Source: Gaiellales bacterium (lineage in GTDB: Bacteria > Actinomycetota > Thermoleophilia > Gaiellales > F1-60-MAGs149). Taken from it: DNA of 24,000 nucleotides. The position numbers and the translations under genes were made by a program. Shown piece by piece: positions 1,678 through 18,573 of the stretch. Location: contig JBKJIG010000031.1 of assembly GCA_046598415.1 (NCBI GenBank), positions 84,975-108,974 of the forward strand, in the 5' to 3' direction. The notes beneath the pieces were generated by a model. That model saw only the letters and a program-made list of their open reading frames with translations. It was not told where the DNA came from and made no database searches. The stretch's first letter is position 1. Each line of letters opens with the position of its first letter.

Positions 1678-1692
1678 TTCGGGTTGCCCGCA
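1678..1692. promoter_or_regulatory. Palindromic operator-like site TTCGGGTTGCCCGCA (13/15 match to TGCGGGTTTCCCGCA)
   Basis: Intergenic. Its centre is 65 nt upstream of the USP ATG at 1750. Confidence 0.5.
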
Positions 1693-1749
1693 CTGACGTT
1701 CCGTGCCGACCCCGACGGCGGCACCCGCCGCCGTCGTCAACATCGGGTC

Positions 1750-2271
1750 ATGGAACCAGGCACCCCCACTCCGTCCGACGTCGCCGAGCCCGCGCCGACC
1801 TGCACGATCGTCGTCGGAGTCGACGGCTCGTCCGGCGCCGAGGCAGCGCTCCGGTACGCCATCGACGAGGCTCGCCGCCACGACGCGCCCCTCCGGATCG
1901 TCGGCGCCTGGTCGATCCCGTCGGCCGCCTACATGGGCGTACCGCTGCCGACGGAGTTCATCGACGATTCCGAGCGGGCGGCGCGCACGTCGATCGACCG
2001 GTCGCTCGAGGCCGTCGGCCGTCCCGGCGACGTGCCGGTCGAGATCGTCGTCGCGCAGGGGCAGCCCGCGGCGGTGCTCGTCGCCCAGGCGCGCCCGGCG
2101 GACGTTCTGGTCGTCGGATCGCGCGGGCTCGGCGGCTTCCGCGAGCTGCTGCTCGGGTCGGTCAGCCAGGCCTGCGTCCACCACGCACCTTGCCCGGTGA
2201 TCGTCGTGCCGGATCCCACGCGACAGACGGGCAAGCACGAGACGCGCGTGCCGGCGGAGACGTCGGCATGA
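1750..2271 (+). CDS. Universal stress protein (UspA family)
   Basis: Internal ATG (MEPGTPTPSD...) of the long 67..2271 ORF. Hallmarks are IVVGVDGSSGAEAALRYA and VVGSRGLGGFRELLLGSVSQACVHHAPCPVIVVP (the G-x2-G-x9-G-S/T ATP motif). Everything upstream in that ORF is Arg/Gly/Pro-rich shadow sequence. Confidence 0.9.
   Translation: MEPGTPTPSDVAEPAPTCTIVVGVDGSSGAEAALRYAIDEARRHDAPLRIVGAWSIPSAAYMGVPLPTEFIDDSERAARTSIDRSLEAVGRPGDVPVEIVVAQGQPAAVLVAQARPADVLVVGSRGLGGFRELLLGSVSQACVHHAPCPVIVVPDPTRQTGKHETRVPAETSA
2131..2177. repeat. Left arm of a 47-bp perfect inverted repeat (partner 2568..2614)
   Basis: GGCGGCTTCCGCGAGCTGCTGCTCGGGTCGGTCAGCCAGGCCTGCGT is the exact reverse complement of 2568..2614. Both arms encode GGFRELLLGSVSQACV in the convergent USP paralogs. 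Confidence 0.9.
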
Positions 2272-2492
2272 CCGCCGGCGGCGAGGCCGAGCGCGTCACC
2301 AACTGGGCGGCCGGCGACGCGATCGTCGTCGAGGCGCGGCACGTCGGCGACGTGGCGCGCGCCGGCGAGATCCTGCAGGTCCTCGGCGATGCCGCCCGGC
2401 CGCACTTCGCCGTGCGCTGGGACGACGGTCACGAGACCATCTACTACCCGTCCAGCGACGCCTCCGTCCACCATCCACACCGGTCGACGTAA
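2268..2492 (+). CDS. DUF1918 domain protein
   Basis: MTAGGEAERV...GDAIVVEARHVGDVARAGEILQVLGDAARPHFAVRWDDGHETIYYPSSDA matches my memory of the small DUF1918 fold (VRW-DGHE motif). Its ATG overlaps the USP stop as ATGA (2268-2271), indicating translational coupling. Confidence 0.8.
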   Translation: MTAGGEAERVTNWAAGDAIVVEARHVGDVARAGEILQVLGDAARPHFAVRWDDGHETIYYPSSDASVHHPHRST

Positions 2493-2506
2493 ACGGTGAT
2501 CACCGT
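2493..2506. terminator. 14-bp perfect palindrome ACGGTGATCACCGT that fills the whole spacer between convergent stop codons
   Basis: Lies between the DUF1918 TAA (2490-2492) and the USP TAG (complement of 2507-2509). Could fold as a 5-bp stem with a GATC loop on either strand. Confidence 0.3.
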
Positions 2507-2992
2507 CTACGGGGCGATCGGCACGCGGTCGTGCGGGACGACGACGACCGGGCAGGTCGCGTGGTGCACGCAGGCCTGGCTGACCGACCCGAGCAGCAGC
2601 TCGCGGAAGCCGCCAACCCCTCGCGAGCCCACCACCAGCACGGCCGCCCCGGTCGCCTCGGCGAGCAGGACGGTGTCCGGCGACCCTCGCCGCACGACGA
2701 TCTCGTACGGCAGGTCGCGCGGATAGCCGACGGTCAGCAGCGCATTGTCCGCCACCTCGCGCGCGGCGATCTCGCAGTTCTCGGGAAAGTTGGGCGGCAG
2801 CGGCGCGCCGGCATAGACGGCGATCGGGACCAGCCACGCGACAACGATCCGCAGCGGCGCGCCGCGCCGCCGTGCCTCGTCGATCGCGTAGCGGAGGGCC
2901 GTTTGCGCTCCCGGCGAGCCATCGACGCCCACTACCACGGGACGGTCCGCGGTGTCGGGGACGGGGGATGCGGTCACGGGATGGTGTTCCAT
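2507..2992 (-). CDS. Universal stress protein (UspA family), paralog of 1750..2271
   Basis: Starts MEHHPVTASP... at 2992 inside the 2507..3463 ORF. Contains VVVGVDGSPGAQTALRYAIDEARRRGAPLRIV and VVGSRGVGGFRELLLGSVSQACVHHATCPVVVVP. Confidence 0.9.
   Translation of the reverse strand: MEHHPVTASPVPDTADRPVVVGVDGSPGAQTALRYAIDEARRRGAPLRIVVAWLVPIAVYAGAPLPPNFPENCEIAAREVADNALLTVGYPRDLPYEIVVRRGSPDTVLLAEATGAAVLVVGSRGVGGFRELLLGSVSQACVHHATCPVVVVPHDRVPIAP
2568..2614. repeat. Right arm of a 47-bp perfect inverted repeat (partner 2131..2177)
   Basis: See the left arm. Confidence 0.9.
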
Positions 2993-3048
2993 GTCCGCAT
3001 GCTGGCCGCTGCGCCCGGCCGGGCCGTCGGCGCAATCGCCTAGGCGGG

Positions 3049-3063
3049 CGGCGGAAACCCGCA
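3049..3063. promoter_or_regulatory. Degenerate operator-like site CGGCGGAAACCCGCA (right half perfect, left half weak)
   Basis: Intergenic. Its centre is 64 nt upstream of the USP start at 2992 and 22 nt past the stop of the tandem USP. Confidence 0.4.
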
Positions 3064-3084
3064 CGGCGGCGATGCCCATCGCAG

Positions 3085-3858
3085 TCAGCGGTAGACGAGC
3101 ACGGAGCACGCCGCGGTGTGCGCGATGCGCTCCGAGACGCTCCCCAGCGACCGGACGCCGTGGAGGCCACGACTGCCCACCACGAGCAGGTCGGCGTCGG
3201 CCGAGGCGGCCGCGAGTGCGTCGACGGAGCCGGCCTGGTCGATCGAGAGCGTGTCGGGGCCGCTCAGCGCGCGGACGGCGTCCACGTCGATGCGCTTGCC
3301 GCCCATCGCCGCCACGACGTGCAACCGGCCACCGTGGTGCCGGCAGATGTACCGCGCGGCGGCGAGCGCCTGTGCGGACGCGGGCGAGCCGTCGATTCCG
3401 ACGACCACGAGCCCGGTCACGGTCGGCGGCCGGCCGGTCGCGCGCCCGGCCAGCACCGAGCAAGGCGCGGCGTGGAGCAGCTCCGTGGCCAGGTCGCCGG
3501 TGAAGAAGCCCTCGGCGCGACTCGAGCGCCGCATGCCGACGCTGATCAGGTCGGCTGCCTCGCGCTGGACGACCTCCCCGAGGACGGACGGTGCGAACCC
3601 GTGCAGGATCTGCGTCTCGACCGCCCCTCCGGCAGACGCACCCGGCGGCAGCACGGCCGCCGCCGCCGCCAGCGCCGCCGCCGCGGTGGCGTCCGACAGC
3701 TTCCGCGACGACTCGGCCGACAGGTCGACGGGATGGGCCGCGTCGGCCACAGTCACGGCCAGGATCCGTGCCTGCGGGTCGGCGATGAGCGCGGCCTGGC
3801 GGGCCGCGTCGAGCGCGAGCTCCGAGCCGTCGATCGTGACGATGATCGTTCGGAACAT
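3085..3858 (-). CDS. Tandem-domain universal stress protein
   Basis: 257 aa with two USP-like halves: MFRTIIVTIDGSELALDA... and LVVVGIDGSPASAQAL...LLVVGSRGLHGVRSLGSVSERIAHTAACSVLVY. Its start lies 4 nt downstream of the upstream USP stop, so the two form an operon. Confidence 0.9.
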   Translation of the reverse strand: MFRTIIVTIDGSELALDAARQAALIADPQARILAVTVADAAHPVDLSAESSRKLSDATAAAALAAAAAVLPPGASAGGAVETQILHGFAPSVLGEVVQREAADLISVGMRRSSRAEGFFTGDLATELLHAAPCSVLAGRATGRPPTVTGLVVVGIDGSPASAQALAAARYICRHHGGRLHVVAAMGGKRIDVDAVRALSGPDTLSIDQAGSVDALAAASADADLLVVGSRGLHGVRSLGSVSERIAHTAACSVLVYR

Positions 3859-3862
3859 CTGG

Positions 3863-4309
3863 CTACCCGCCGGACGCGACGGTCGAGCCCGAGCCCTCGA
3901 CGGATGCCGCAGCGGGATCGGCCGTCGCGGTGACGACCAGGACCGGCCGCGTGCTGTGCCGGATCAACCCGTGCGCGACGCTGCCGAGCACGGCGCTCGT
4001 CAACCGGCCGCGGCCCCGCGACCCGACGACGATCAGGTCGGCGTCGCAGGCGTCGGCCGCGGCGAGGAGCTGCTCCACGGCGGGCCCGATGCGTGTCACG
4101 ACCTCCGCCGTGATGCCGCGCTCGCGCGCTCGGCCGGCGGCGGACTCCGCCGCTGCCGTCGGGGCCGGATCGATGCCGTCCTTCGAGAACGAGTCGTCGA
4201 CGCCCACGCAGACGACACCTGCGCCGGTGTCGGCGGCGAGCTCGAGCGCCGCTGCAAGCGCTGCGGACGCCGGGTCGGATCCGTCCGTCCCGATCACGAT
4301 CGTCTTCAT
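3863..4309 (-). CDS. Universal stress protein (UspA family)
   Basis: MKTIVIGTDGSDPASAALAAALELA...LIVVGSRGRGRLTSAVLGSVAHGLIRHSTRPVLVV. A GAGGAG Shine-Dalgarno lies about 7 nt upstream of the ATG. Confidence 0.9.
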   Translation of the reverse strand: MKTIVIGTDGSDPASAALAAALELAADTGAGVVCVGVDDSFSKDGIDPAPTAAAESAAGRARERGITAEVVTRIGPAVEQLLAAADACDADLIVVGSRGRGRLTSAVLGSVAHGLIRHSTRPVLVVTATADPAAASVEGSGSTVASGG

Positions 4310-4384
4310 AGCAAGCTCCTCTCGCTTTTGGAGAGCCTAGGCCGCGAACGGCAGCCCGCACATCGGCGTACCCTAACGCCCGAC

Positions 4385-4399
4385 CGCGGGAAACCCGCA
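4385..4399. promoter_or_regulatory. Palindromic operator-like site CGCGGGAAACCCGCA
   Basis: Lies in a divergent intergenic region. Its centre is 83 nt upstream of the USP start at 4309 and about 190 nt upstream of the REC gene. The 18-mer CCGCGGGAAACCCGCAGC is identical to the reverse complement of the site at 6805-6822. Confidence 0.65.
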
Positions 4400-4583
4400 G
4401 CCGACGTGCCCGAGACCCCGATTCCCGGTCGGTTCCCCGCTCGCAGACTACGTGCATGGAGCCTCGCCGACCCATCTGCGCGATCGTCGCATGAGGACCG
4501 CGCGCCGTCACCCGGCCGCCGGCGACCCGACGACAGGCGGGCTGTTCGAGCCACGCGCTGATGGCGGTTCTCCGAGTCGGATC

Positions 4584-4982
4584 ATGAACGCCGCCGCGAG
4601 AGCTCCTGACTCGGGCGCGACCCGCGTGTTGCTCGCCATCGCCCACGGCCGCACACGGGCCGCCCTGCGGACTGCACTCGAGTGCAGCGGAGAGATCGAG
4701 GTCGCGGCCCTGGTGTCGAGCTCGGTGCATCTCGCGAGGATGGCGGCCATCGAGCACGTCGACGTCGTCGTGTTCGATCTCCGCCTCGCCCCGCCCGGCA
4801 CCTCGCCATCGCTCGCCACCCTCGTCGCGAGCCTCGGCGGGACCCCCCTGGTCGCGGTCGGCCTGGATGGAGATCCGGCCTTCGCGCGGGCGGCAGTACG
4901 AGCCGGAGCGTCCGCGCACATGCTCACCGACGAGACGCCGGAGCGCTTCCTAGACGTCGTCCGCGACGTCCGCCGGCGCTGA
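4584..4982 (+). CDS. Stand-alone NarL/DosR-like receiver (REC) domain protein with a degenerate phospho-pocket and no DNA-binding output domain. Start codon uncertain (4452 and 4491 are alternatives).
   Basis: TRVLLAIAHGRTRAALRTAL...VDVVVFDLRLAPP...LVAVGLDGDP...AGASAHMLTD follows the REC fold pattern. Compared with my recollection of DosR (VFLVDDHEVV / VAVLDVRLP / LILTSY / AGASGYVVKD), the DD pair becomes IA, Thr becomes Gly and Lys becomes Thr; only the phospho-acceptor Asp is kept. The TGA stop at 4980-4982 lies inside the convergent kinase gene. Confidence 0.55.
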   Translation: MNAAARAPDSGATRVLLAIAHGRTRAALRTALECSGEIEVAALVSSSVHLARMAAIEHVDVVVFDLRLAPPGTSPSLATLVASLGGTPLVAVGLDGDPAFARAAVRAGASAHMLTDETPERFLDVVRDVRRR

Positions 4983-6731
4983 GACCGGATCCGCCGCATT
5001 CTCCTGCTCGACACCCAGCCGCCGAGTGGCCGGCAGGGTGAACACGAGCTCCGTGCCGTCGGCCGACGACTCCACCGCCAGGCTGCCGCCCGCGAACGCG
5101 ACGCGCTCGCGCATGCCGATCAGGCCGAAGCCGGCGTGCGTCTCGACCGGGTCGAAGCCCGTTCCGTCGTCCCGGATGGCGATGGTCAGCAGGTCGTCGT
5201 GCTCCGCCATGTCGATCTGGATGCGTGCCGCTTCGGCGTGCCGGACGGCGTTCGTCAGGGCCTCCTGCACCAGCCGGTAGACCGCGAGCTCGGTCGCGGG
5301 CTCGAGCCGCTCGGTCGAGCGCCCGGCCTCGAACGCCAGGTCGGCGTTGACGGAGATGTCGACGGTGGCCCGCCCCTTCGCCCGTTCTGCGAGCGCCTCC
5401 ACCGCCGGCACCACGCCGAGGGCGTCGAGGGCGGCGGGACGCAGGTCGTTGATGATCGCGCGCAGGTCGCGGATGGTGGAGTCGATCTGCGTGACGGCGT
5501 CGTCGAGCATCGCCGAGACGGCCAGCGGGTCGGTCACCCGCCGCGCGCTCGCCAGGCCGATCTTGAGCGCGGCGAGCTCCTGGAGGGTGTCGTCGTGCAG
5601 CTCCCGCGCCCAGCGCCCCCGCTCGGCCTCCGCCGCCTCGATGCTCCGCCGCAGACCCAGCTGGACGACGTTCTGCGCGGTCGCCACGGCCGTCGCGGCG
5701 CTCGCGGCGAAGGCATCCATGAGCCGTTCGTCCTCGGCCGAGAACCCCGGACCGGCGCTGAGTCGGTCGAACGCCCCGAGCACGCCCAGGGCGCGGCCGT
5801 GGAACAGCAGCGGGACGAGCAGTCCCGTCGTCGCCCCGAGACGTTCGGCGAGACCGAATCGCAGCCGCGTCTTGACGTCCGAGAGCCGTTCGGCGCTTCG
5901 CGTGCGCAGTACCGATCCCGTCGCCGACCCCTCGATCGGCACGCGCTGGCCGACCATCTCCGGGTCGACCGCGCCGGCCACCGCCGTCACGACGAGCTCG
6001 TCGCCGTCCTGCAGCAGCAGCACCATGCTCTCTGCCTCGACCAGCGCCCGGCCGCGTTTGACGATCAGCTCGAGCACCCGTTCGAGCCGCGTCTCGCCGC
6101 CGATGGCGCGGGCGATGTCGGTGGTCGTCTCGAGCGCCCGGACGGTTCGTTCGAGCGCGTCACGGCGCGTCTGCTCCGCCTGGTACAGCCGGGCGTTGTC
6201 GATCGCCCTCGCAGCCCACGCCGCGAGCACGACGATCGCCGTCTCGTCCTGCTCGTCGAACTCGCCGGTCTCCTTCTCGGTCAGGTAGAGGTTGCCCCAC
6301 GCCCGGCCCCGGACGATCACGGGGACGCCGAGGAACGTCGACATCGGCGGATGGCCGAGGGGGAAGCCGTACGACCGGGGATGCGCGCCGACGTCTGCCA
6401 GCCGCAGGGGACGCGGCTCGTCGATCAGGTAGCCGAGGATGCCGCGACCGCGGGGCAACTCGCCGATCCGCAGCTGCATCTCGGCGTCGATGCCGCTGGT
6501 CACGAACCGCTCCAGCGACCGCCGGTCGGGTGCCATCACGCCCACTGCCGCGTACCGCGCGCCGGTGAGCTCGCGCGCGGCGGCGAGCACCTTGCCGAGG
6601 ACGACCTCGAGGTCGAGCTCGGAGACGACGGACTGCCCGATGTCGAGCAGCAGCCGCAGTCGCCGCCCGTCGAGTCCCTGCAAGGACGGTGCAGGGCTCG
6701 CGCCAGCCGGGACCTGATCGTCGAAAGCCAT
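4950..6731 (-). CDS. DosS/DevS/DosT-like sensor histidine kinase (GAF-GAF-HisKA_3-HATPase_c)
   Basis: Starts MAFDDQV at 6731. GAF-A carries YGFPLGHPPMSTFLGVPVIVRGRAWGNLYLTEKETGEFDEQDE...NARLYQ, closely matching the heme-pocket region of M. tuberculosis DevS as I recall it ([32 protein letters not shown]). The H-box is WARELHDDTLQEL and the ATPase region is RDDGTGFD...GFGLIGMRERV. Confidence 0.9.
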   Translation of the reverse strand: MAFDDQVPAGASPAPSLQGLDGRRLRLLLDIGQSVVSELDLEVVLGKVLAAARELTGARYAAVGVMAPDRRSLERFVTSGIDAEMQLRIGELPRGRGILGYLIDEPRPLRLADVGAHPRSYGFPLGHPPMSTFLGVPVIVRGRAWGNLYLTEKETGEFDEQDETAIVVLAAWAARAIDNARLYQAEQTRRDALERTVRALETTTDIARAIGGETRLERVLELIVKRGRALVEAESMVLLLQDGDELVVTAVAGAVDPEMVGQRVPIEGSATGSVLRTRSAERLSDVKTRLRFGLAERLGATTGLLVPLLFHGRALGVLGAFDRLSAGPGFSAEDERLMDAFAASAATAVATAQNVVQLGLRRSIEAAEAERGRWARELHDDTLQELAALKIGLASARRVTDPLAVSAMLDDAVTQIDSTIRDLRAIINDLRPAALDALGVVPAVEALAERAKGRATVDISVNADLAFEAGRSTERLEPATELAVYRLVQEALTNAVRHAEAARIQIDMAEHDDLLTIAIRDDGTGFDPVETHAGFGLIGMRERVAFAGGSLAVESSADGTELVFTLPATRRLGVEQENAADPVSAPADVADDV

Positions 6732-6806
6732 GCTGCAGCTGCGACGATACCCCACCGGACGGCGGCGCGCACCGGCAGCCGCGATCTCTATCCGGCGGCG
6801 GCCCGC

Positions 6807-6821
6807 TGCGGGTTTCCCGCG
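6807..6821. promoter_or_regulatory. Palindromic operator-like site TGCGGGTTTCCCGCG
   Basis: Lies in a divergent intergenic region. Its centre is 83 nt upstream of the sensor-kinase start (6731) and 104 nt upstream of the DUF4389 GTG (6918). Confidence 0.65.
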
Positions 6822-6917
6822 GCCGGGCACGCGCAGCCTCCGGATGCGCCCCCGCCCCGGAACGGCCACCATGGTGCCGATGCGGCGATGCCGCGTCAAC
6901 GTTGATGGGAGTGAGAC

Positions 6918-8459
6918 GTGAGCACGGTGGAGAACACGGCCCCCAGGGAGGGCGTGCGGGTCGGCCGTGTCCTGCTGCTGGTATTCGGCGGGCTGCTGAT
7001 GCTGGTCTCGTTCGGCCTCCTCGCAGGGGGCGGCGTGCTCGGCTGGGCGTACGGCACGCAACGCGATGCCGACGGATACTTCACGACGTCCACCGAGCGT
7101 CTCCGGTCACCGGCCTTCGCGATCACGTCGCAGAAGATCGATCTCGGCTCCGCCCCGGACGACTGGGCCTTCGGCGACAGCCGGTTCGGCACGGTCCGCC
7201 TGCGCGTCGCCGGATCCGAGGGCGCCCCGGTCTTCGTCGGCATCGGCCGGGAGACCGACGTCGAGCGCTATCTGGACGGCGTTGCCCAGGACGAGATCGT
7301 CCACGCCGACTTCTCCGGGCCGGATCTGGGCGACGTCGATGTGCGGTTCCGGCGCCGGACCGGGACCCGGACGCCGGCGCCGCCGGCGGACCAGCGCTTC
7401 TGGGTCGCGTCGGCCGGGGGCGCAGGGACGCAGACGCTGGACTGGGATGTGCGGTCGGGCGCGTGGACGGCCGTGGTCATGAACGCCAATGCCGGCCGCG
7501 GCGTCGACGTCGACGCCGCTGTCGGCGCCAAGGCCGACTGGCTCCTGCCCGTGCTGATCGGCCTGCTGGTCGGCGGCGGTCTGCTGCTCGCCATCTCGCT
7601 CACGATGGTGGTCGTCGGCGCCACGGGACTGCGGCATCCGACGCCCGCTGCCGCGGCCGGAGCTGGGCCGACGGCTCGGCCGCTGCCGGCGTCCGGAGCC
7701 TGGACCGCCGACGCGCATGCCCGCGTCTACCCGCTGCGCCTCGACGGGACGCTGGACGACGACGTGAGCCGGTGGCTCTGGCTCGTGAAGTGGCTGCTCG
7801 CGATCCCGCACTTCATCGTGCTGTGGTTCCTGTGGATCGCGTTCGCCGTCGTCAGCTTCATCGCGTTCCTCGCGATCCTCTTCACCGGCCGCTATCCGCG
7901 CGGGCTGTTCGACTTCAACGCCGGGGTGCTGCGGTGGACGTGGCGGGTCGGCTTCTACGCGTACAGCGCCCTCGGCACCGACCGCTACCCGCCGTTCACA
8001 CTCGAGGACGTGCCCGACTACCCGGCGCGCCTTCAGATCGACTACCCGGAGCGGCTGTCGCGTGGCCTGGTGCTCGTCAAGTGGTGGCTGCTGGCCATCC
8101 CGCAGTACCTCATCGTCGGCCTGTTCGGCAGCGGCATCTGGTGGAGCGCCGGCTGGTGGGGTGGCGACCACCACGCCTCCGGGCTCGTCCAGGGAAACGC
8201 GGGCGGAGGGCTGATCGGGATACTGGTCCTGATCGCCGGCATCTGGCTCCTGTTCGCCGGCCACTATCCGCGCGACATCTTCCGCTTCGTGATGGGCCTG
8301 AACCGCTGGGTGTACCGCGTGATCGCCTACGCGACGCTGATGCGCGACGAGTATCCGCCGTTCCACCTCGACGCGGGCGGCCGCGATCCTGGCACTCCAC
8401 CTCTGGCACCGACCCCGGAATCTCCGGCCGAGCAGCCGCCGGAGACGGCGGACGCATAG
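6918..8459 (+). CDS. DUF4389-family integral membrane protein with an N-terminal extracytoplasmic domain
   Basis: GTG start preceded by GGGAGTGAG. The C-terminal half contains two DUF4389-like repeats: [72 protein letters not shown] and [16 protein letters not shown]...[38 protein letters not shown]. Confidence 0.85.
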
Positions 8460-8460
8460 G

Positions 8461-8489
8461 TCCGTCCTGCGGAGTTTCCGCAGGACGGA
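8461..8489. terminator. Perfect 13-bp stem / 3-nt loop hairpin TCCGTCCTGCGGA-GTT-TCCGCAGGACGGA. Its core (8468-8482, TGCGGAGTTTCCGCA) is a variant of the operator-like palindrome.
   Basis: Begins 2 nt after the DUF4389 stop. Its centre is 65 nt upstream of the DHOD-like ATG (8540). No U-tract follows. Confidence 0.5.
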
Positions 8490-8539
8490 CCCGCGCCCCC
8501 GCCGTTGCGCATCGGTCGCCGACCCCGGATGCTGCACGT

Positions 8540-9565
8540 ATGACCGCCTCGCACGCCGACTCGCCGGTCGATCTGACGACCTCGTACCTCGGCCTGGCGC
8601 TGCGCAGCCCGATCGTGGCATCGCCCTCGCCGCTGACGGGGACGCTCGATGGCATCCGCCGGCTGGCGCAGGCCGGAGCCGGCGCGATCGTCTTGCCGTC
8701 GGTGTTCGAGGAGCAGGTGTGGCGCTCCTCCGAGCGACTTCTGGCCGGAAACGACGGCGGCATCGGCCGCCTCGACCGCGTCAGCTCGTACCCGCCGGAC
8801 GCCACCGTCGCCCTCGACGATCCGTCCGCTGCGCTCGGGCTGATCCGGGCAGCCGTGAACGCGGTCGACATCCCCATCGTCGCGAGCCTCAACGGCGGCG
8901 GCAGCGGCGGCTGGCCCGTGTACGCGCACGCGCTGCAGCAGGCCGGAGCGGTGGCGATCGAGCTGAACATCTACGACATCGCCGCCGACATCGGCTCGTC
9001 GGCGGCCACGGTCGAGGATCACTACATCGAGATCCTCGCAAGCGTCAAGGCGGTGGTGACCATTCCCGTCGCGGTCAAGCTCCCGCCGTGGTTCAGCTCC
9101 GTCGGTGCGATCGCAGCCCGGCTCGCCGGCGCGGGCGCCGACGGCCTGGTCCTGTTCAACCGGTTCCTGCAGCGGGACATCGACCCCGAGCGGCTCGCGG
9201 TCACCTCCGGCATGCACCTGTCGAGCTCGCACGAGTCGACGCTCCCGATGACGTGGATCGCCCTCCTCCGGGGCCGCGTCGGCGTATCGCTGGCCGCGAC
9301 CACGGGCGTCGAGGGGCCCGCCGATGTCGCGAGGTTCCTGCTCGCCGGCGCCGACGTCGTGATGACCGCCTCCGCCGTGTTGCGACACGGCCCCGAGTAC
9401 GTCAGCGAGCTGACAGACGGCCTCGTCGCTTGGATGCGCCGCAAGCAGTTCACCACCCTCAGCGAGGTGCGCGGGCTGCTGAGCGAGGCCCTCGGCGCGG
9501 ACGCCGCGTCCCACCGGGCCGGCTACGTCGACGTGCTCCAGGCCGGACGCAAGCAGTATGGCTGA
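8540..9565 (+). CDS. Dihydroorotate dehydrogenase-like (class 1 DHOD/DHPD-like TIM-barrel) flavoprotein
   Basis: Begins [34 protein letters not shown]. Also contains [34 protein letters not shown] and [29 protein letters not shown], the DHOD-like barrel pattern. It is the only real part of the 6689..9565 ORF. Confidence 0.85.
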
Positions 9566-11981
9566 GCCCGCGCTCGCCCCGGACGAGCTCGCCGCGATCG
9601 ATGCGTGGTGGCGCGCTGCGAACTACCTCAGCGCCGGCCAGATCTACCTGATGGCGAACCCGCTGCTGCGCGAGCCGCTGCGGCCGGAGCACGTCAAGCC
9701 GCGCCTGCTCGGCCACTGGGGGACGACGCCGGGGCTGAACCTGCTCTACGCGCACCTGAACCGCATCATCGTCGCGCACGACGCCGACCTCCTGTTCATC
9801 GCCGGCCCCGGCCACGGCGGCCCGGCGATGTGCGCGAGCACGTGGCTCGAGGGGTCCTACACGGAGCACTGGCCGACCGTCACCGCGGACGGCGCCGGGA
9901 TGCAGAAGCTGTTCCGCCAGTTCTCGTTCCCGGGCGGCGTTCCGAGCCACGTCGCGCCCGAAACGCCCGGCTCGATCCACGAGGGTGGCGAGCTCGGCTA
10001 CGCGCTCGCGCACGCCTACGGCGCGGCCCTCGACAATCCCGATCTCGTGGTGGCCTGCGTGATCGGCGACGGTGAGGCCGAGACGGGGCCGCTCGCGGCC
10101 AGCTGGCACGCGAACAAGTTCCTGAACCCGGCGACCGACGGCGCGGTCCTGCCGATCCTGCACCTAAACGGCTGGAAGATCGCGAACCCGACCGTGCTCG
10201 CGCGGATCGGCGAGGCGGAGCTGACGCAGCTCCTGTCCGGCTACGGACATCGTCCGCTGATCGTCTCGGGCGACGATCCCGAGCGCGTGCACCAGGCGTT
10301 GGCGGCGGCGCTGGACGACGCCTACGCCGATATCCGCCGCATCCAGCACGAGGCCCGTGCGGGCGGCGCCGTGCGGCGTCCGCCCTGGCCGATGATCGTC
10401 CTCGAGACGCCGAAGGGATGGACCGGCCCGCAGACGGTCGACGGCCTCAAGGTCGAGGGCACCTGGCGCTCGCACCAGGTGCCGCTGTCCGCGACCCGCA
10501 CCAACCCGGAGCACCTGGCGGCCCTCGAGCGATGGCTGCGCAGCTACCGGCCGGAGGAGCTGTTCGATGCCGACGGCCGCCCGGCGGAGACGATCCGCGC
10601 CCTGGCACCGAACCGGTCGAAGCGGATGGGATCGAGCCCGCACGCCAACGGCGGCAAGCTGCTGCGCGACCTCACGCTGCCCGAGTTCCGCGCGTTCGGT
10701 GTCGACGTTCCCCGGCCCGGGGCGACGACGGCCGAGGCGACGCGCGTGCTCGGCCGGTACCTGGCCGAGGTGATGCGACTGAACGCCGGCGCCCGCAACT
10801 TCCGCATCGTCGGCCCCGACGAGACGGCGTCCAACCGCCTGGGCGACGTCTTCGAGGTGACGGGTCGCGCCTGGATGGGCGAGCGCACGGCCGACGACGA
10901 GGACCTCGCGGCCGACGGCCGGGTCATGGAGATCCTCTCGGAGCACGTCTGCCAGGGTTGGCTCGAGGGCTACCTGCTGACGGGCCGGCACGGCCTGTTC
11001 TCGTGCTACGAGGCGTTCGTCCACATCGTCGACTCGATGTTCAACCAGCACGCGAAGTGGATCAAGACCGCGCACGGCATCCCGTGGCGGCGGCCCGTCG
11101 CGTCGCTCAACTACCTGCTCACGTCGCACGTCTGGCGCCAGGACCACAACGGTTTCTCGCACCAGGACCCCGGCTTCATCGACCACGTCATGAACAAGCG
11201 GGCCGAGGTGATCCGCGTGTACCTGCCGCCCGACGCCAACACGCTGCTGTCGGTGGGCGACCACTGCCTGCGCAGCCGCGACTACGTGAACGTCATCGTC
11301 GCGGGCAAGCAGCCGGCGCCGAACTGGCTGACCGTCGAGGAGGCCGCCGACCACTGCACGCGCGGCCTCGGCATCTGGGACTGGGCGACGAACGAGGGCG
11401 AGGAGGGGCCTGACGTGGTGATGGCCTGCGCCGGCGACGTCCCGACGCTCGAGACCCTGGCGGCGGTGAGCATGCTGCGCGACCGGCTCCCGCACCTGCG
11501 CGTGCGGGTCGTGAACGTGGTCGACCTGATGCGCCTCCAGCCCGCCGCCGAGCACCCGCACGGCCTTCCCGACGTCGAGTTCGACGCCATCTTCACGCCG
11601 GACCGGCCCGTGATCTTCGCGTACCACGGCTACCCGTGGCTGATCCACCGTCTGACGTACCGGCGCACGAACCACCGCAACATCCACGTGCGCGGCTACC
11701 GCGAGGAGGGCACGACCACGACGCCGTTCGACATGGTGATGCTGAACGACCTCGACCGGTTCCACCTCGTCGCCGACGTGATCGACCGGGTGCCGTCGCT
11801 CGGCCCGCCTGCGGCCGACGTCCGGCAGGACATGGTCGACGCGCGCAACCGCGCGCGGCGCCATACCCGCGAGCACGGCGTCGACACCCCGGAGGTCACC
11901 GAGTGGACCTGGGACGTTCCGGGCGGACCGCACGATCCGCCACCAGGATCGTCTCCCGCTCGGCGTCCGACCGGAACCTGA
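9558..11981 (+). CDS. xfp: Phosphoketolase (xylulose-5-phosphate/fructose-6-phosphate phosphoketolase)
   Basis: 806 aa. Contains [57 protein letters not shown] and [15 protein letters not shown], canonical XFP signatures. Its ATG overlaps the upstream gene by 8 nt (ATGGCTGA). Confidence 0.95.
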
Positions 11982-12043
11982 CGGCCTCCGGGACGGCGCA
12001 GACCGGTTGCGTGATCGTCCGTAGGAAATGCCCCGTGCCGGAC

Positions 12044-12058
12044 TGCGGCAAAGCCGCA
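12044..12058. promoter_or_regulatory. Palindromic operator-like variant TGCGGCAAAGCCGCA
   Basis: Intergenic. Its centre is 92 nt upstream of the USP ATG at 12143. The flank CCGGACTGC is shared with the site at 16200. Confidence 0.55.
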
Positions 12059-12142
12059 CCTCACATCGCGTCGCCCGCGGATGGAGCAGCACCGGCGGCG
12101 ACGGATGATGCGTCCGTAGGCACTCACGGAAAGGAGAGGTCG

Positions 12143-12586
12143 ATGGACCTCATCGTGCACGCAACGGATGGATCTCCCGAGGCCGCCGCGGCTCTGGATC
12201 TCGCCATCGAACTGGCCAAGGACACCGGCGCCAGGCTCGCCGTGCTCGCGGTGCACGTACCGGTTCCCGGTGGCAAGGGAATCGCGCCGCCGATCTCGCA
12301 GGTCGAGCAGCCACACGGCGCCGAGCACCTCGCCGAGGCGGCCGCGGCGACGGCGAACGCCGCCGGCATCGACACCAAGCCGTACGTCGCGACCGGTGAG
12401 CCGGCGAAGGAGATCGTGCGCCTCGCCAAGGACCTGGGCGCGAACCTGATCGTGATCGGTTCCCGCGGGCTCGGCGGGGTGCGCGGGGCGCTCGTTGGAT
12501 CCGTGTCGCGCGCCGTCATGACGCACTCCACCGTCCCGGTGACGGTCGTCACGAGCCGCTCCGTCCGCGAGCCGGCCCGCGCGTAG
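12143..12586 (+). CDS. Universal stress protein (UspA family)
   Basis: An AAGGAGAG Shine-Dalgarno lies 5 nt upstream of the ATG. Sequence: MDLIVHATDGSPEAAAALDLAIELA...LIVIGSRGLGGVRGALVGSVSRAVMTHSTVPVTVV. Confidence 0.9.
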   Translation: MDLIVHATDGSPEAAAALDLAIELAKDTGARLAVLAVHVPVPGGKGIAPPISQVEQPHGAEHLAEAAAATANAAGIDTKPYVATGEPAKEIVRLAKDLGANLIVIGSRGLGGVRGALVGSVSRAVMTHSTVPVTVVTSRSVREPARA

Positions 12587-12591
12587 AGCGA

Positions 12592-12639
12592 CTGGCGGGT
12601 TCCCGGGTACGCCACCCCCCGGCATCGGGGACCCGCCAG
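12592..12639. terminator. Long-loop hairpin CTGGCGGGTTCCC...GGGGACCCGCCAG downstream of the USP gene
   Basis: 13-nt arms with one T/G wobble and a loop of about 22 nt. Starts 6 nt after the stop at 12586. The left arm GGCGGGTTCCCGGG resembles the operator motif with one T missing. Confidence 0.3.
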
Positions 12640-12669
12640 GTATGTCGCTGTGGATGACCCCGCCCGACG

Positions 12670-13000
12670 CCCTGGCGTGCCGCCGAGGCGTGGGCGCTGG
12701 GCGACACCCTCGACGCCGAGATCGTGATCGACGGGGCACGCGTCGGCCGCCTCCGCGACCTCGCGGTGCGCCTCGGCGACGTAGGTCCTCGACCGCACCG
12801 CCGCGGTCGGCGTCGAGATCGGCGCGGCCGCCGTGCTGCGCCGGATCGGCCTGCGCCGGCTGGCGCGACACGCGCGCCGCGACCTGATCCCGATCTTCGC
12901 GATCCACCTGCCGGGCGCCAGCCACGAGCCGCTCACCCTCGAGACGACGCACGCGCGCTGGCTTCGCTGCAGGCACACGAGCTCGCCGGCCTGCTCGACC
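12670..13000 (+). pseudogene. Putative frameshifted remnant of a PRC-barrel/MgtE_N-like protein
   Basis: Protein-like segments appear in alternating frames: frame 1 AAEAWALGDTLDAEIVIDGARVGRLRDLAVRLGDV, frame 2 VLDRTAAVGVEIGAAAVLRRIGLRRLARHARRDLIPIFAIHLPGASHEPLTLET, then frame 1 again LASLQAHELAGLLDRD. No single intact ORF with a convincing start exists. The family assignment is from memory only. Confidence 0.35.
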
Positions 13001-13086
13001 GAGACGCTGGAGCCAGAGCACGCCGCCCGGACGCGGCATCACCTCGCACGCCACGCCACCCGGCGGGCCCGTCGCCGGCTGACCGA

Positions 13087-13273
13087 TCTCCAAAGCGCCG
13101 TAGGGCCCGGCTCGCCGCGTTCGCAGCCGTGCTGGGACCGGGCCTCCTGGCCGGGCGATCGCGGGCTGATGGGCGCCTACGCCAGCTCCCGTCTCGTGAC
13201 GGCCCTGGGCTGGCTCACGGTGATGGCGGTCGGCGGCTGCGTGGTCGCCCTCGCGGCCGCCGCGCTCGTCTGA
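13087..13273 (+). pseudogene. Putative Nramp-family (NRMT-like) transporter remnant: N-terminal and C-terminal ends joined by a large internal deletion plus a frameshift
   Basis: Frame 1 reads RRRARLAAFAAVLGPGLLAG(RSRADG), resembling the Nramp N-terminal LGPGLxxGxSDDDPSG motif. Frame 2 reads LMGAYASSRLVTALGWLTVMAVGGCVVALAAAALV-stop, resembling the Nramp C-terminal last helix. About 400 aa of transporter core is missing. Confidence 0.35.
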
Positions 13274-13284
13274 CGAGGGGGTCG

Positions 13285-13695
13285 CTACTTGACGATCAGC
13301 ACGTCGCAGGAGGCGTGGTGCGCGACACGGTCAGAGACGGAGCCGAGCAACGCGCGCTGCATGCCGTTCTGGTTGCGGCTGCCGACGATGATCAGCGAGT
13401 AGCCGTCGCGCTCGGCGGCCTCGCAGATGGCGTCCGCGGGGTCGCCGACGGCCTCGATGGTGTGCGCCTCAACGCCACGGCCGGCGAGGAACTCGATCGC
13501 CTCGGCCAGTTCGGCGCGATGCTCGGACGGGCCGTCGCCCGCGACGAACGGTCCACCGGAGCGCGGTCCGCCGGCGACTCTCGGAACCACGCTGATGACG
13601 CCGAGCGTGTCGCCGTACAGGGTCATCGTGGCTGCTCGGTCGAGCGCCGCCTTGGCGCTCTCCGTGCCGTCATAGCCCACCAGCAGCTTCGACAT
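13285..13695 (-). CDS. Universal stress protein (UspA family)
   Basis: A GGAGGT Shine-Dalgarno lies 5 nt upstream of the ATG at 13695. Sequence: MSKLLVGYDGTESAKAALDRA...LIIVGSRNQNGMQRALLGSVSDRVAHHASCDVLIVK. Confidence 0.9.
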   Translation of the reverse strand: MSKLLVGYDGTESAKAALDRAATMTLYGDTLGVISVVPRVAGGPRSGGPFVAGDGPSEHRAELAEAIEFLAGRGVEAHTIEAVGDPADAICEAAERDGYSLIIVGSRNQNGMQRALLGSVSDRVAHHASCDVLIVK

Positions 13696-13783
13696 TTCCA
13701 ACCTCCAGAGGTTCTGATCGCTGAACCTCTCGAGCGTTGCACCGCGCCGAGACCGGCGAATCGGCGACAGCCCGGTCCGGGCC

Positions 13784-13798
13784 TGCGGGAAACCCGCG
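13784..13798. promoter_or_regulatory. Palindromic operator-like site TGCGGGAAACCCGCG
   Basis: Intergenic. Its centre is 96 nt upstream of the USP start at 13695 and 5 nt past the oxidase subunit I stop. Confidence 0.6.
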
Positions 13799-13802
13799 CC
13801 GC

Positions 13803-15620
13803 CTACAACTGGATGAGCAGGCCGGCGACGAGCAGCAGCAGCGCCAGCAGCATCGCCCAGGCTCCCTGGCGGCGCGCGCCGAGCGCCACGGCGACGTAGC
13901 CGGCGAGGATGCCGAGGGGCGCCCACAGGAACGGGCTCTGCCAGAGGGACGGGATCGCGAGCGCCACGCCGCCGGCGGCGAGCAGCCCCGCCAGCACGTC
14001 ACGCGGCTCCTCGCGCGCGATCGTGTCAGTACGGGCGTCGTCGGGTGGCTTCGGGCCGAGCGCCCCGGACAACCACGTCACGCCCAGCGTCCGCGCGAGG
14101 TTGTACGCGAAGATCGCCTGGCCGATCACGATCAGCGCCACGAACGGCAGCGCCAGTTGGCTCATCGTCAGGTACTGGTCCGGCAGGACCGCGAACCGGC
14201 GCGGCGCGCCCTCGAGCCCCTGCCACATCCACGGGATCACCGACCCGTACCCGCCCACCACCGTCAGGGCCAGATGCCAGTCGGCGAGGCGCAGGGAGTG
14301 CCACGGTCTGCCAACGATGCCAGGCAGGAAGTAGTAGATGGCCCCGAAGATCACCATCCCGATGTGGATCAGCGCCATGTTGTGGAAGTGCCCGACGATC
14401 CACAGGGTGTTGTGGGCGACGACGTCGTACTGGATCGTCGCGAGCCCGACGCCCTGCAGGCCGGCCACCAGCCACGAGACCAGCGCCACCGACAGGAACC
14501 GGGCAGCCGGGCTCGACCAGTCGAAGGCCGATCGGTAGATGGTGAAGCCGAGCGAGAACAGCGAGATCGCGGACGGGATCGTCACCGCGTAGGTGAGCGG
14601 TTGCGTGAAGCTGTTGACCGACTGCTGGAAGCTCTCCGGGAAGTCGGTGTACATGTGATGCGCGCCGATGATCACGTTCGAGACGACGGCGATCGTCCAC
14701 GCGACGGCGATGATGTGGCCGGCCACCAGATCACGGCCGGCGAGCTTCGGGATGATGTGGTAGTAGACGGCGACGGCCGGGAACAGCAGCAGGTAGACGA
14801 CCGGGTGGCCGAACCACCAGAGCATCGTCTTCGCGAGCAGCGGGTCGACGGTCACGGACGGCTGGATGGCCTGGACGACCATCAGCACGAGCAGGATGGC
14901 GAGCGGCAGCGTCGCGACGATCATGTCGAGGGCGATCACGGCGAGCGGGATCGCGGCGTACGGCAGCGGCCGGTCGGTTGCGAAGCGCTTCGGCCGCAGG
15001 TAGCCGAACCCGAGCGAGCACAGCACCCGGTGCCCGAAGCCCGCGCCGGCGCGGGCGCCGAGCCCCGGCCCCGTCAGCACCGCGAGCAGCGCGAAACAGT
15101 ACGCGAAGATCGACAGGCCGACCGAGAGCACCGACAGCGCGAACAGCGCCGTCGTCGTCTCCGTCCACTGTCCGGTCGAGGAGAACGGCAGCGGGTAGAG
15201 GAACACCCACGAGCCGGCGAAGTGCTGCGCCAGCACCGTGATGACGATGCCGGCGACGCCGACCACCATCGTCCACCACGAGATGGACGCCCACCGGTAC
15301 CCCCAGCCGCGCAGCTCGAAGCCCGATTCCTGGAGGATCCAGTACGAGAGGCCCATCAGGCAGAACGCGGCCCAACCGACGAAGGTCGCCAAGCCGTGCG
15401 CCGTCATCAGCTCGTACCACACGGCGGGCGAGACGGTGATGACCTCGGCCTGGCTCTCGCGCAGCACGCCACCGAGCGACCCGCCGACCAGGAAGAACAG
15501 GGTCGAGGTCAGCACGTGGCGCAAGACCAGCGACTTGGCCCGGTCGCGGACGGCGGCGACGCTCAACTCGGCCTCGCCGGTCCGGCCGAGGTAGCCGGCC
15601 GGGATGCCGACGGCACTCAC
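13803..15620 (-). CDS. Heme-copper oxidase subunit I (cytochrome c/quinol oxidase; probably B-family, ba3-like) with a C-terminal two-helix extension
   Basis: Metal ligands are present: LMTAHG (low-spin heme His), WWFGHPVVY (CuB His plus helix-VI Tyr), GAHHMYT (CuB His pair) and VGHFHNM (heme His pair). The GTG start at 15620 overlaps the subunit II stop as GTGA. The 38 codons upstream in the ORF are not needed. Confidence 0.9.
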   Translation of the reverse strand: MSAVGIPAGYLGRTGEAELSVAAVRDRAKSLVLRHVLTSTLFFLVGGSLGGVLRESQAEVITVSPAVWYELMTAHGLATFVGWAAFCLMGLSYWILQESGFELRGWGYRWASISWWTMVVGVAGIVITVLAQHFAGSWVFLYPLPFSSTGQWTETTTALFALSVLSVGLSIFAYCFALLAVLTGPGLGARAGAGFGHRVLCSLGFGYLRPKRFATDRPLPYAAIPLAVIALDMIVATLPLAILLVLMVVQAIQPSVTVDPLLAKTMLWWFGHPVVYLLLFPAVAVYYHIIPKLAGRDLVAGHIIAVAWTIAVVSNVIIGAHHMYTDFPESFQQSVNSFTQPLTYAVTIPSAISLFSLGFTIYRSAFDWSSPAARFLSVALVSWLVAGLQGVGLATIQYDVVAHNTLWIVGHFHNMALIHIGMVIFGAIYYFLPGIVGRPWHSLRLADWHLALTVVGGYGSVIPWMWQGLEGAPRRFAVLPDQYLTMSQLALPFVALIVIGQAIFAYNLARTLGVTWLSGALGPKPPDDARTDTIAREEPRDVLAGLLAAGGVALAIPSLWQSPFLWAPLGILAGYVAVALGARRQGAWAMLLALLLLVAGLLIQL

Positions 15621-16141
15621 GGAACGACCTTGAAGCTGGTGACCATCGTGTGGTGCCCGATGCCGCAGTACTCGAAGCAGCGCACGGCGTAGACCCCCGG
15701 ACGCTGCAGCGTCAGCCGCAGCGTCGACGGCCACTGCGGCATCATCTGCGCCTGCGCGACGAAGGTGCCGGACGGGTCGTAGATGGCGAAGGCGTGGTTG
15801 ACGTCCTTGGCGGTCAGGCGGAACTCGACCTGCCGGCCCGCCTTGACGGTGGTGGTCGAGAACGTGAAGCCGTACTGCTGGGCGACGACATCGACGACCT
15901 GCTGATCGGCCCGCGCCTCAGCGTTCCACGGCGTCTCGGAGATGGTCGCCGCTGCCGACCCGACCAGCGCGATCATGACGACGACGAACCAGACGTTCTC
16001 ACGCCGCTTCCAGCGCGCGACGTTCATCGGCTTCGCGCGGGCCTTCGCACGGGTGGACAGGAAGATCATCGCGAACACGACGAGGCCCAGGACGACCAGC
16101 CCGAGGTAGATCAGATTGAAGACCACCATCGTCCGGTTCAT
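15617..16141 (-). CDS. Heme-copper oxidase subunit II (CuA domain)
   Basis: MNRTMVVFNLIYLGLVVLGLVVFAMIFL plus a second TM helix, then a cupredoxin domain ending in the CuA motif (H)AF...CFEYCGIGHHTM. An in-frame alternative ATG at 16189 overlaps the palindrome and is judged less likely. Confidence 0.85.
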   Translation of the reverse strand: MNRTMVVFNLIYLGLVVLGLVVFAMIFLSTRAKARAKPMNVARWKRRENVWFVVVMIALVGSAAATISETPWNAEARADQQVVDVVAQQYGFTFSTTTVKAGRQVEFRLTAKDVNHAFAIYDPSGTFVAQAQMMPQWPSTLRLTLQRPGVYAVRCFEYCGIGHHTMVTSFKVVP

Positions 16142-16187
16142 CGCGAGTGACGCTAACGGCCCCCCGCAGGCCGGTCCTCGGCGGATC

Positions 16188-16226
16188 ATGCAGTCCGGCT
16201 GCGGGAAACCCGCAGCCGGACTGCAT
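16188..16226. promoter_or_regulatory. 39-bp perfect palindrome ATGCAGTCCGGCTGCGGG-AAA-CCCGCAGCCGGACTGCAT containing the consensus operator TGCGGGAAACCCGCA (16200-16214)
   Basis: The 18-nt arms are exact reverse complements. It lies 5 nt downstream of the stop of gene 16231..16662, and its centre is 66 nt upstream of the oxidase subunit II ATG (16141). Confidence 0.65.
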
Positions 16227-18482: not shown

Positions 18483-18506
18483 CGTGCTTCTCCTACGTCG
18501 TTCGGT

Positions 18507-18539
18507 ACCGGGCGACACCACTGTGTAGTGCCGCCCGGT
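18507..18539 (-). other. Intercistronic stem-loop between the first secreted-protein gene and the signal-peptidase fusion gene
   Basis: ACCGGGCG-A-CAC / GTG-C-CGCCCGGT gives 8+3 bp with a 1x1 mismatch and a 9-nt loop. It lies between the stop at 18574 and the start at 18482. No U-tract follows. Confidence 0.4.
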
Positions 18540-18573
18540 GTCATTGGGGTCGACAATGCCGGCCGCCGCGGAC

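Follow-up and report, generated by a model that had tools for sequence, protein, structure and literature searches.

A palindromic operator with a fixed promoter geometry marks a putative heme-sensor stress/hypoxia regulon in Thermoleophilia

We analyzed a 24-kb stretch of DNA (hereafter the window; G+C 72%) from contig JBKJIG010000031.1 of a Gaiellales bacterium, in which an earlier note had described eight copies of a 15-bp palindrome ahead of the genes of a stress/hypoxia island and had proposed that they are operators of an uncharacterized regulon. The gene map, built from a frame plot and Pfam searches, upholds the gene calls of that note. The island holds several genes for universal stress proteins (USPs), a sensor kinase of the DevS/DosT type, a DUF4389 protein, an operon for a DHOD-like protein and a phosphoketolase, and a heme-copper oxidase operon (COX2-like protein and COX1). 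Genes for secretion, ABC-transporter, methyltransferase and TMADH-like proteins lie to the right of the oxidase operon. The closest homologs of the kinase are annotated as Solirubrobacteraceae or Conexibacter, members of the class Thermoleophilia.

The palindromes are real. All eight 15-mers were found where the earlier note had placed them and with the sequences it had read, and all are intergenic by frame plot and Pfam. The distances from site centre to start codon also hold: 65, 64, 83, 83/104, 65, 92, 96 and 66 nt for the sites at 1678, 3049, 4385, 6807, 8468, 12044, 13784 and 16200, respectively. The site at 3049 has the position and sequence given for it, but its left arm is degenerate (CGGCG). 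The motif is an inverted repeat, TGCGG-N5-CCGCA, with an A/T-rich centre and a spacer of 5 nt at every site; counted from the centre, the consensus is T-7 G C G G-3 / C+3 C G C A+7. In its loose form, with up to two mismatches, TGCGG-N5-CCGCA matches the window 51 times against 43.8 expected, which is no excess over chance. The full sequence TGCGGNWWWNCCGCA, with at most one mismatch, matches 6 times in the window against 0.08 expected, a count reached in none of 100 shuffles. A position weight matrix built from the eight sites recovers just those eight across the 24 kb, together with one weak match. This extra match, TGCGGCGATGCCGCG at 6881-6895, has a GC-rich centre and falls right where the inferred DUF4389 leader begins.

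The motif is conserved in sequence and position at orthologous promoters. Related loci were chosen as the surroundings of kinase homologs. In L001 (ERZ25039464 contig_17817; kinase 81% identical, syntenic), the motif lies 65 nt before the DHOD-like gene (site 8243), 65 nt before a USP gene and 92 nt before the Nramp-adjacent USP gene (site 2880). The distance is thus the same in L001 and the window both for the DHOD-like ortholog (65 nt) and for the USP ortholog (92 nt). In L004 (ERZ25039476 contig_1998; kinase 76% identical), a site at 8899 lies 94 nt before the ortholog of the USP gene starting at 13695, which has 96 nt in the window. At greater distance (L006 and L007, kinase 58-60% identical), the motif precedes genes for cytochrome bd, a REC-only (receiver domain) protein with a kinase in one operon, a DAGAT-family acyltransferase, a USP and others. 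No motif was found in L005, a non-island locus.

Species genomes were also scanned with the exact 15-mer; the figures are those among the matches listed (at least 120 stretches) and not a census. Among these, 13 come from Thermoleophilia, Solirubrobacterales or Gaiellaceae and about 7 more from Actinomycetota metagenome-assembled genomes (MAGs), and the remaining listed matches are scattered over all phyla, as chance predicts. The genes behind the Thermoleophilia sites encode a NirK-like copper oxidase, a COX2-like protein, pyridine-nucleotide oxidoreductases, OsmC, a USP and a probable aldehyde dehydrogenase. Together with cytochrome bd, WS/DGAT, the REC-only and kinase operon and further USPs, which make up the wider target set beyond the window, these genes fit a respiration/redox-stress regulon. 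A context test with a USP hidden Markov model found too few USPs near exact 15-mer matches to inform by itself. A further 59 matches in viral contigs are apparently chance or unrelated repeats and were discarded; in two of these contigs the 15-mer is part of a 23-bp tandem repeat (L010, 8001/8024; L038, 10848/10871), an unrelated use. In the literature searched, we found neither the motif nor a link of Thermoleophilia to DosR or DevS.

The sites were aligned in the sense of the downstream gene, with offsets counted from the palindrome centre. A -10-like hexamer, NANNNT, begins 52-53 nt from the centre at all eight window sites. Between the two elements lies a proximal box, CSGATG (CCGA[CT]G- or CGGATG-type), which occupies +27 to +32 at all eight sites, or about -38 to -33 relative to the inferred transcription start. 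The same spacing is seen outside the window. Of 44 other Thermoleophilia sites, 21 have NANNNT at offset 53, where the average count over offsets is 2.3 (standard deviation 2.4), and the neighboring offsets 54 and 52 account for 8 and 4. By comparison, 100 exact 15-mer copies from other phyla show no NANNNT peak at offset 53 (9 vs a mean of 8.4). The proximal box was not used in choosing or orienting the sites, and it too recurs: among 24 non-window sites, 22 have C+27, 21 have G+29, 19 have A+30 and 19 have G+32; the first base of the box is at +27 in 16 sites and no more than 1 nt away from +27 in 20. This promoter module recurs at orthologous and non-orthologous loci of Solirubrobacterales and Gaiellaceae and does not accompany the chance 15-mer copies in other phyla. 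A secondary NANNNT peak at offset 48 (8 of the 44 non-window Thermoleophilia sites) may represent a second promoter geometry or chance. CCGAT was also considered as a sigma-28-type -10 element and rejected, since its spacing to the palindrome centre misfits and the leaderless ATGs place the -10 elsewhere.

The geometry changes how the distances to the start codons are read. None of the four genes at 64-66 nt (starts 1750, 2992, 8540 and 16141) has a Shine-Dalgarno sequence. The ATG stands exactly 6 nt beyond the hexamer in three of these genes and 8 nt beyond it in the COX2-like gene. These four genes appear to be leaderless. The arrangement hexamer-N6-ATG without a Shine-Dalgarno sequence is found at no fewer than 9 of 24 genes outside the window, and a leaderless look was noted in L001, L004, L006, L105, L112, L147 and L177. 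Where the distance is 83-104 nt, the gene does have a Shine-Dalgarno sequence, and its leader would span 18-39 nt. The promoter sequences thus suggest one constant operator position, about -65 from the transcription start. Since a single position with differing leader lengths yields all three distance classes, these classes reflect leader lengths and not different operator positions. As the earlier note had said, the sites at 4385 and 6807 lie between divergent genes; no other of the eight does. There the geometry faces the USP4-USP3 operon and DUF4389, respectively. For the site at 6807, the distances of 83 nt to the kinase gene and 104 nt to DUF4389 are correct, but the fixed geometry faces DUF4389 and not the kinase. 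The statement that a palindrome precedes every transcription unit of the island is accordingly too broad, as the kinase and receiver-like genes have no promoter of this geometry.

Table 1. Predicted regulatory elements and genes of the window (positions in the window; gene evidence in the last column).
Feature	Position	Strand	Remarks
Predicted operator TTCGGGTTGCCCGCA	1678-1692		Centre 1685, 65 nt from an apparently leaderless ATG; upstream of USP/DUF1918 unit (start 1750, +)
Predicted operator CGGCGGAAACCCGCA	3049-3063		Degenerate left arm; upstream of USP (start 2992, -)
Predicted operator CGCGGGAAACCCGCA	4385-4399		Serves USP4-USP3 operon (start 4309, -); divergent intergenic region
Predicted operator TGCGGGTTTCCCGCG	6807-6821		Between kinase (-) and DUF4389 (+); promoter geometry faces DUF4389
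Predicted operator TGCGGAGTTTCCGCA	8468-8482		Upstream of DHOD-like/phosphoketolase operon (apparently leaderless ATG 8540); tip of 33-bp palindrome
Predicted operator TGCGGCAAAGCCGCA	12044-12058		Upstream of USP (start 12143, +)
Predicted operator TGCGGGAAACCCGCG	13784-13798		Upstream of USP (start 13695, -)
Predicted operator TGCGGGAAACCCGCA	16200-16214		Consensus; upstream of COX2-like/COX1 oxidase operon (start 16141, -); tip of 39-bp palindrome
Proximal box CCGACG	1712-1717	+	
Proximal box	3024-3029	-	
Proximal box	4360-4365	-	
Proximal box	6841-6846	+	
Proximal box	8502-8507	+	
Proximal box	12078-12083	+	
Proximal box	13759-13764	-	
Proximal box	16175-16180	-	
-10-like hexamer CAACAT	1738-1743	+	
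-10-like hexamer CAGCAT	2999-3004	-	
-10-like hexamer TAGGCT	4334-4339	-	
-10-like hexamer CACCAT	6867-6872	+	
-10-like hexamer GATGCT	8528-8533	+	
-10-like hexamer GATGAT	12104-12109	+	
-10-like hexamer AACGCT	13733-13738	-	
-10-like hexamer TAGCGT	16150-16155	-	
ATP-grasp protein	2-910	+	Frame plot/Pfam
Membrane protein	914-1501	+	Frame plot/Pfam
USP	1750-2271	+	Frame plot/Pfam
DUF1918	ends 2492	+	Frame plot/Pfam; one unit with the USP starting at 1750
USP	2507-2992	-	Frame plot/Pfam
Tandem USP	3085-3858	-	Frame plot/Pfam
USP	3863-4309	-	Frame plot/Pfam
Receiver-like open reading frame	4452/4584-4982	+	No Pfam hit
GAF-GAF-HisKA_3-HATPase kinase, DevS/DosT-type	4950-6731	-	Pfam
DUF4389	6918-8459	+	Frame plot/Pfam
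DHOD-like protein	8540-9565	+	Frame plot/Pfam
Phosphoketolase	9558-11981	+	Frame plot/Pfam
USP	12143-12586	+	Frame plot/Pfam
USP	13285-13695	-	Frame plot/Pfam
COX1	13803-15734	-	Frame plot/Pfam
COX2-like protein	15617-16141	-	Frame plot/Pfam

In its GAF-A domain, the window kinase shares 55-56% identity with DosT/DevS (DosT GAF-A match at E = 3e-42), and it keeps the heme-ligand His (GHPPM) and the distal Tyr (NLYLTEK). By its sequence it is clearly a relative of DevS and DosT. The receiver-like protein encoded next to it (4584-4982) is stand-alone, degenerate and without a helix-turn-helix (HTH) domain, and the 3' end of its gene overlaps that of the kinase gene at 4950-4982. It reads AIAHGR in place of the acidic pocket and is 31% identical to the product of the REC-only gene of L006 (9562-9975), which has a weak Response_reg match and is encoded between an operator and the kinase gene. 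The receiver-like gene is convergent with the kinase gene in the window and co-directional with it in L004 and L006.

Since no HTH regulator is encoded in the window, as the earlier note had observed and Pfam agrees, the binder was assigned solely by linkage in related genomes. In a Solirubrobacterales MAG (L124), a WS/DGAT gene, a palindrome site, a small membrane gene, a regulator gene with REC and GerE domains (2276-2953) and a USP gene follow one another, and we compared 80 metagenomic orthologs of this regulator. The palindrome is found 456-562 nt upstream of the regulator, ahead of the small membrane gene, in the two closest orthologs (L187, L188) and in L264, and a weaker match with two mismatches lies at -547 in L198. 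In L264, the palindrome stands between a divergent DevS-like kinase gene and the regulator operon, mirroring the window site at 6807. A search for palindrome enrichment near the regulator orthologs was swamped by coding-sequence artefacts, and a second element, the direct repeat CCGTA-N5-CCGCA, was spotted by eye. It lies 42-145 nt from the start of the regulator match in seven or eight other lineages; on the sense strand it occurs within 42-91 nt in seven lineages, with 18 matches on both strands of the whole 472 kb. The soil lineages L193, L223, L224, L225, L228, L237 and L257 carry it ahead of the regulator gene. By eye, the direct repeat lies 21-22 nt upstream of a TANNNT hexamer in five or six lineages, not including L257, with an ATG or GTG 6-8 nt beyond. 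In these lineages the regulator gene appears to be leaderless, and the same half-site would there adopt another topology and occupy a class II position.

The regulator is also linked to the kinase. At 13 or more loci, the regulator gene has a gene for a GAF-GAF kinase (48-57% identity to that of the window) adjacent or close by. L004, from a close relative of the window organism, pairs its kinase gene with an adjacent gene for a regulator of 47% identity that has the same helix. Members of the family show almost no variation in the recognition helix, SVRTVE[T/S]HR.HIQQKL. The L124-type regulator shows no greater similarity to DevR than to VraR or NarL. An assignment of the L004 regulator as a DevR ortholog was considered and found unsupported, the protein being a generic member of the NarL family.

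The proposal of the earlier note, an operator for a dimeric regulator of a DosR-like stress/hypoxia regulon, is supported by the rigid spacing, the conservation at orthologous promoters and the absence of pairing covariation described below. We consider it likely that the palindrome is the operator of a NarL/FixJ activator partnering the DevS/DosT-type kinase, with the layout and targets proposed here. Several points weigh against this reading. Six of the eight window sites also lie directly downstream of a co-directional gene, a terminator-like position, and about 30% of the Thermoleophilia exact 15-mer copies are without the -10 spacing. The transcription starts are placed from sequence features alone, and the proximal box could be a -35 element instead of a half-site. 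As for the regulator, its assignment comes from linkage, most of the 80 orthologs have neither the palindrome nor the direct repeat nearby, no site was found ahead of the L004 regulator gene, and the Arg/Glu signature of the recognition helix (see below) is shared by FixJ-type regulators of other specificities.

The same pattern would arise if another factor controlled the regulon as a whole, the response-regulator operon included. The palindrome would then still be the operator of a stress/hypoxia regulon but be bound by a dimer of, for example, the CRP/FNR, IclR or Lrp/AsnC type. The lack of a regulator gene in the window and the regulator orthologs without nearby sites, that of L004 included, favor such a binder. 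The form abcde-WWW-e'd'c'b'a' with its A/T-rich centre resembles Lrp/AsnC-type sites, and one L001 site is followed by a cNMP-binding gene. However, the protein encoded by that gene has no HTH, and among the loci examined no other DNA-binding gene turns up repeatedly. The half-sites agree with those of ComA, a characterized GerE-type regulator, about a dozen loci of several lineages have sites with the CCGCA half-site ahead of the regulator operon, and the regulator is linked to a DevS-like kinase. We judge a binder from another family to be unlikely.

Since CSGAT stands 21 nt before the hexamer, much as CCGCA stands at 22 nt in the regulator promoters, we read the proximal box as a degenerate half-site of the same factor. 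Alternatively, CSGATG and NANNNT would be the -35 and -10 elements of an alternative sigma factor or of an RNA polymerase-associated factor, and the palindrome an upstream accessory element. The box indeed sits at the -35 position, 20 nt from the hexamer, and is conserved like the palindrome arms, and sigma-70 consensus promoters are absent from the region. On the other hand, sigma elements do not take the form of a perfect dyad at -65, the hexamer NANNNT is a -10 of the housekeeping type, and in the regulator promoters of other lineages it is the CCGCA of the direct repeat that holds the position of the box, 22 nt from TANNNT. A sigma-type reading of the box is quite improbable.

The palindromes might also act as RNA, either terminating the upstream gene or stabilizing or processing the downstream mRNA. 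We examined the pairing over 33 sites. Pair -5/+5 is C:G in 30, pair -4/+4 is G:C in 31 and pair -3/+3 is G:C in 32 of the 33 sites; positions -7 to -3 and +3 to +7 keep their sequence, sites that deviate do so on one side, and the arms contain no compensatory change. The sole variable pair, -2/+2, is other than G:C in 19 of the 33 sites and complementary in 5 of these 19, about what chance gives. The covariation of position 6 with its partner (G/C, A/T, C/G) that the earlier note had seen among the eight sites is therefore a small-sample effect. The orientation of the central AAA/TTT was likewise dropped as a feature: the sense strand reads TTT in seven of the eight window sites, but the ratio is about 60:40 over all sites and the run flips between orthologs.

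Since the arms are conserved as sequence without covariation, they are best read as a protein-binding DNA site and not as an RNA hairpin. The inferred starts, about 65 nt downstream, would also place the palindrome outside the target mRNA. These two points, together with the divergent sites, lead us to reject a hairpin or terminator as the general function. What speaks for an RNA role is the position of six sites behind a co-directional gene, the very stable hairpins that two longer palindromes would form, and the fact that actinobacterial terminators often have no U-tract. Against it, the sites at 4385 and 6807, at 2880 in L001 and at 14460 in L006 lie in divergent regions, one-sided mismatches are tolerated, the stem is merely 5-6 bp at most sites, and the central A/T run flips in the sense strand (AGTTT at window site 8468, AAACC at 8243 in L001). 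The palindrome extends past 15 bp at only three of the 33 sites, namely window sites 8468 and 16200 and the L001 ortholog of the former. In the window, an Rfam search gave one sub-threshold snoRNA match, which is irrelevant, and no U-tract terminators were found; the features of intrinsic terminators are thus not those of these sites, which have no U-tract, no covariation and divergent members. An RNA element as the common function is very improbable.

The two long palindromes deserve separate mention. Both 8459-8491 (33 bp, -32 kcal/mol as RNA) and 16188-16226 (39 bp, -40 kcal/mol) are perfect and carry operators at their tips. In both cases a co-directional gene has its stop codon directly before the palindrome; in L001, the ortholog of 8459-8491 retains 5 extra pairs. 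They may be terminator and operator in one, or their flanks (GTCC...GGAC) may add protein contacts; a secondary role as terminators is possible for these two.

The chance that the palindrome is a repetitive extragenic palindromic (REP)-like or mobile intergenic repeat without regulatory specificity is negligible: although REP elements are typically short GC-rich palindromes and the 15-mer does belong to a real dispersed repeat in the unrelated Pelethomonas MAG L155, the strong sites of the window and four island loci (about 111 kb) are all intergenic and precede stress or respiration genes, their flanks have nothing conserved beyond the proximal box and the -10, their spacing to the hexamer is rigid, and, where a high-copy element would give several copies per record, the 120 stretches among the matches listed come from 120 different records with a single exact copy each, except L155. 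The window and related loci, although no whole genome was scanned, thus give no indication of the high-copy repeat that the earlier note had named as refuting its proposal, and neither high copy number, function-blind spread nor conserved flanks were seen in the loci examined. In L155 (47% G+C), the 15-mer is found at 220, 2881 and 6456 inside a dispersed repeat of more than 100 bp, an unrelated use.

The closest regulatory parallels in gene content are the regulons of DevR/DosR in Mycobacterium and OsdR in Streptomyces. As in those systems, the window encodes a heme GAF-GAF-HisKA_3 kinase in which the heme ligand is kept, and the targets include many USPs, a tgs-like WS/DGAT, alternative respiratory enzymes and, in L007, an Rv2632c-like gene. 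As with DevR/DosR, the USP genes cluster round the kinase gene, and a NarL-family regulator is the presumed output. There are also differences: the window kinase has no adjacent regulator, and the main site lies at about -65, whereas DevR sites overlap the -35. The operators differ as well. The DevR and OsdR boxes follow GGG-N8-CCC (TTSGGGACTWWAGTCCCSAA; AGGGCCGATCGGCCCT) (PMC5069765), in contrast to TGCGG-N5-CCGCA (GG-N5-CC) here. The earlier note had already set the motif apart from the mycobacterial DosR box, and the distinction stands: GGGNC-N4-GNCCC is absent from all intergenic regions of the window, its only match in the window being inside the COX1 coding sequence, and the ten window matches to GGG-N8-CCC all lie inside or at the edge of coding sequence, none near a promoter.

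The closest known operator is instead the ComA box of the ComP-ComA system in Bacillus subtilis, with TTGCGG/CCGCAA where the present motif has TGCGG/CCGCA. ComA binds TTGCGG-N4-CCGCAA at a class I position, together with degenerate recognition elements beside a poor -35, and it prefers a 4-nt spacer but tolerates 5 nt (PMC4797271). The promoters described here would share this layout, with a distal inverted repeat at a class I position and a degenerate proximal element by a poor -35, and the candidate regulator belongs to the same tetrahelical GerE-type HTH family. The two operators differ in the spacer, which is 5 and not 4 nt here, and in the outermost T/A of the ComA hexamer, which is not conserved here. 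The input differs too, being a heme GAF kinase in a locus with no peptide-sensing ComP/ComX context, and so do the host, an actinomycetote of the class Thermoleophilia, and the target promoters, which appear to be largely leaderless. The recognition helix of DevR reads AEKTVK, with K and K at two positions that contact bases in DevR and NarL; in HMMER alignments, NarL (TESTVK) and VraR (TIKTVK) read S/K and K at these positions. By our reading of these alignments, the candidate regulator has Arg and Glu there, like ComA (SKRSIE; PDB 2KRF). The resemblance to ComA is probably convergent or a matter of shared HTH-family ancestry only. The sites of NreC (TAGGG-N4-CCCTA) and NarL (7-2-7) are also GC-rich dyads bound by GerE-type dimers at respiratory genes, but they differ from the present motif in half-site sequence and spacing.

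We propose the following scheme for the activator reading. Low O2, NO or CO would switch on the DevS/DosT-type heme kinase, whose partner would be the NarL/FixJ response regulator with REC and GerE HTH domains and the recognition helix SVRTVE[T/S]HR. The phosphorylated regulator dimer would occupy the palindrome, a class-I-like distal site with its centre some 65 bp ahead of the transcription start, and the half-site-like proximal CSGATG at about -38 to -33. The regulator would then recruit RNA polymerase to the promoter with NANNNT at -12 to -7. The predicted targets in the window are eight units: five USP units, DUF4389, the DHOD-like/phosphoketolase operon and the heme-copper oxidase operon. 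The sites, their geometry and conservation, the target genes and, in related genomes, the linkage of kinase, regulator and sites are direct observations; the transcription starts, activation as opposed to repression, the binder and the signal are deduced from them. For a more specific version of this scheme, a Thermoleophilia heme two-component system with ComA-like and not DevR-like specificity, a dyad at -65 with a half-site at -35, many leaderless targets and some long-palindrome operators that also terminate transcription, we lean only slightly towards acceptance.

Two further features of the window lie beside the regulon. An open reading frame at 12785-13273 (+) has coding-like G+C at third codon positions and no Pfam hit, and L001 has two Nramp fragments at that place (349-717 and 794-1573); the frame may be an Nramp remnant or a pseudogene. 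A cluster at 16231-19044 (-), encoding a DUF5305 protein and two small secreted proteins, is conserved beside the USP/kinase island in L004 (6144-8880) and has no operator of its own. The DUF5305 protein may be SipW-like, but its sole Pfam hit is DUF5305.

If the proposal is true, it would provide the first concrete regulon and promoter model for Thermoleophilia, consisting of an operator, a proximal box, a -10 element and leaderless starts. The operator would be a variant of the familiar hypoxia-regulon type, and its mechanism would not be of a new kind. The motif could be used for regulon prediction across hundreds of MAGs. It would also mean that the dormancy/hypoxia response of Actinomycetota keeps its heme sensor and its targets (USPs, tgs and alternative oxidases), while the regulator-operator pair between them differs.

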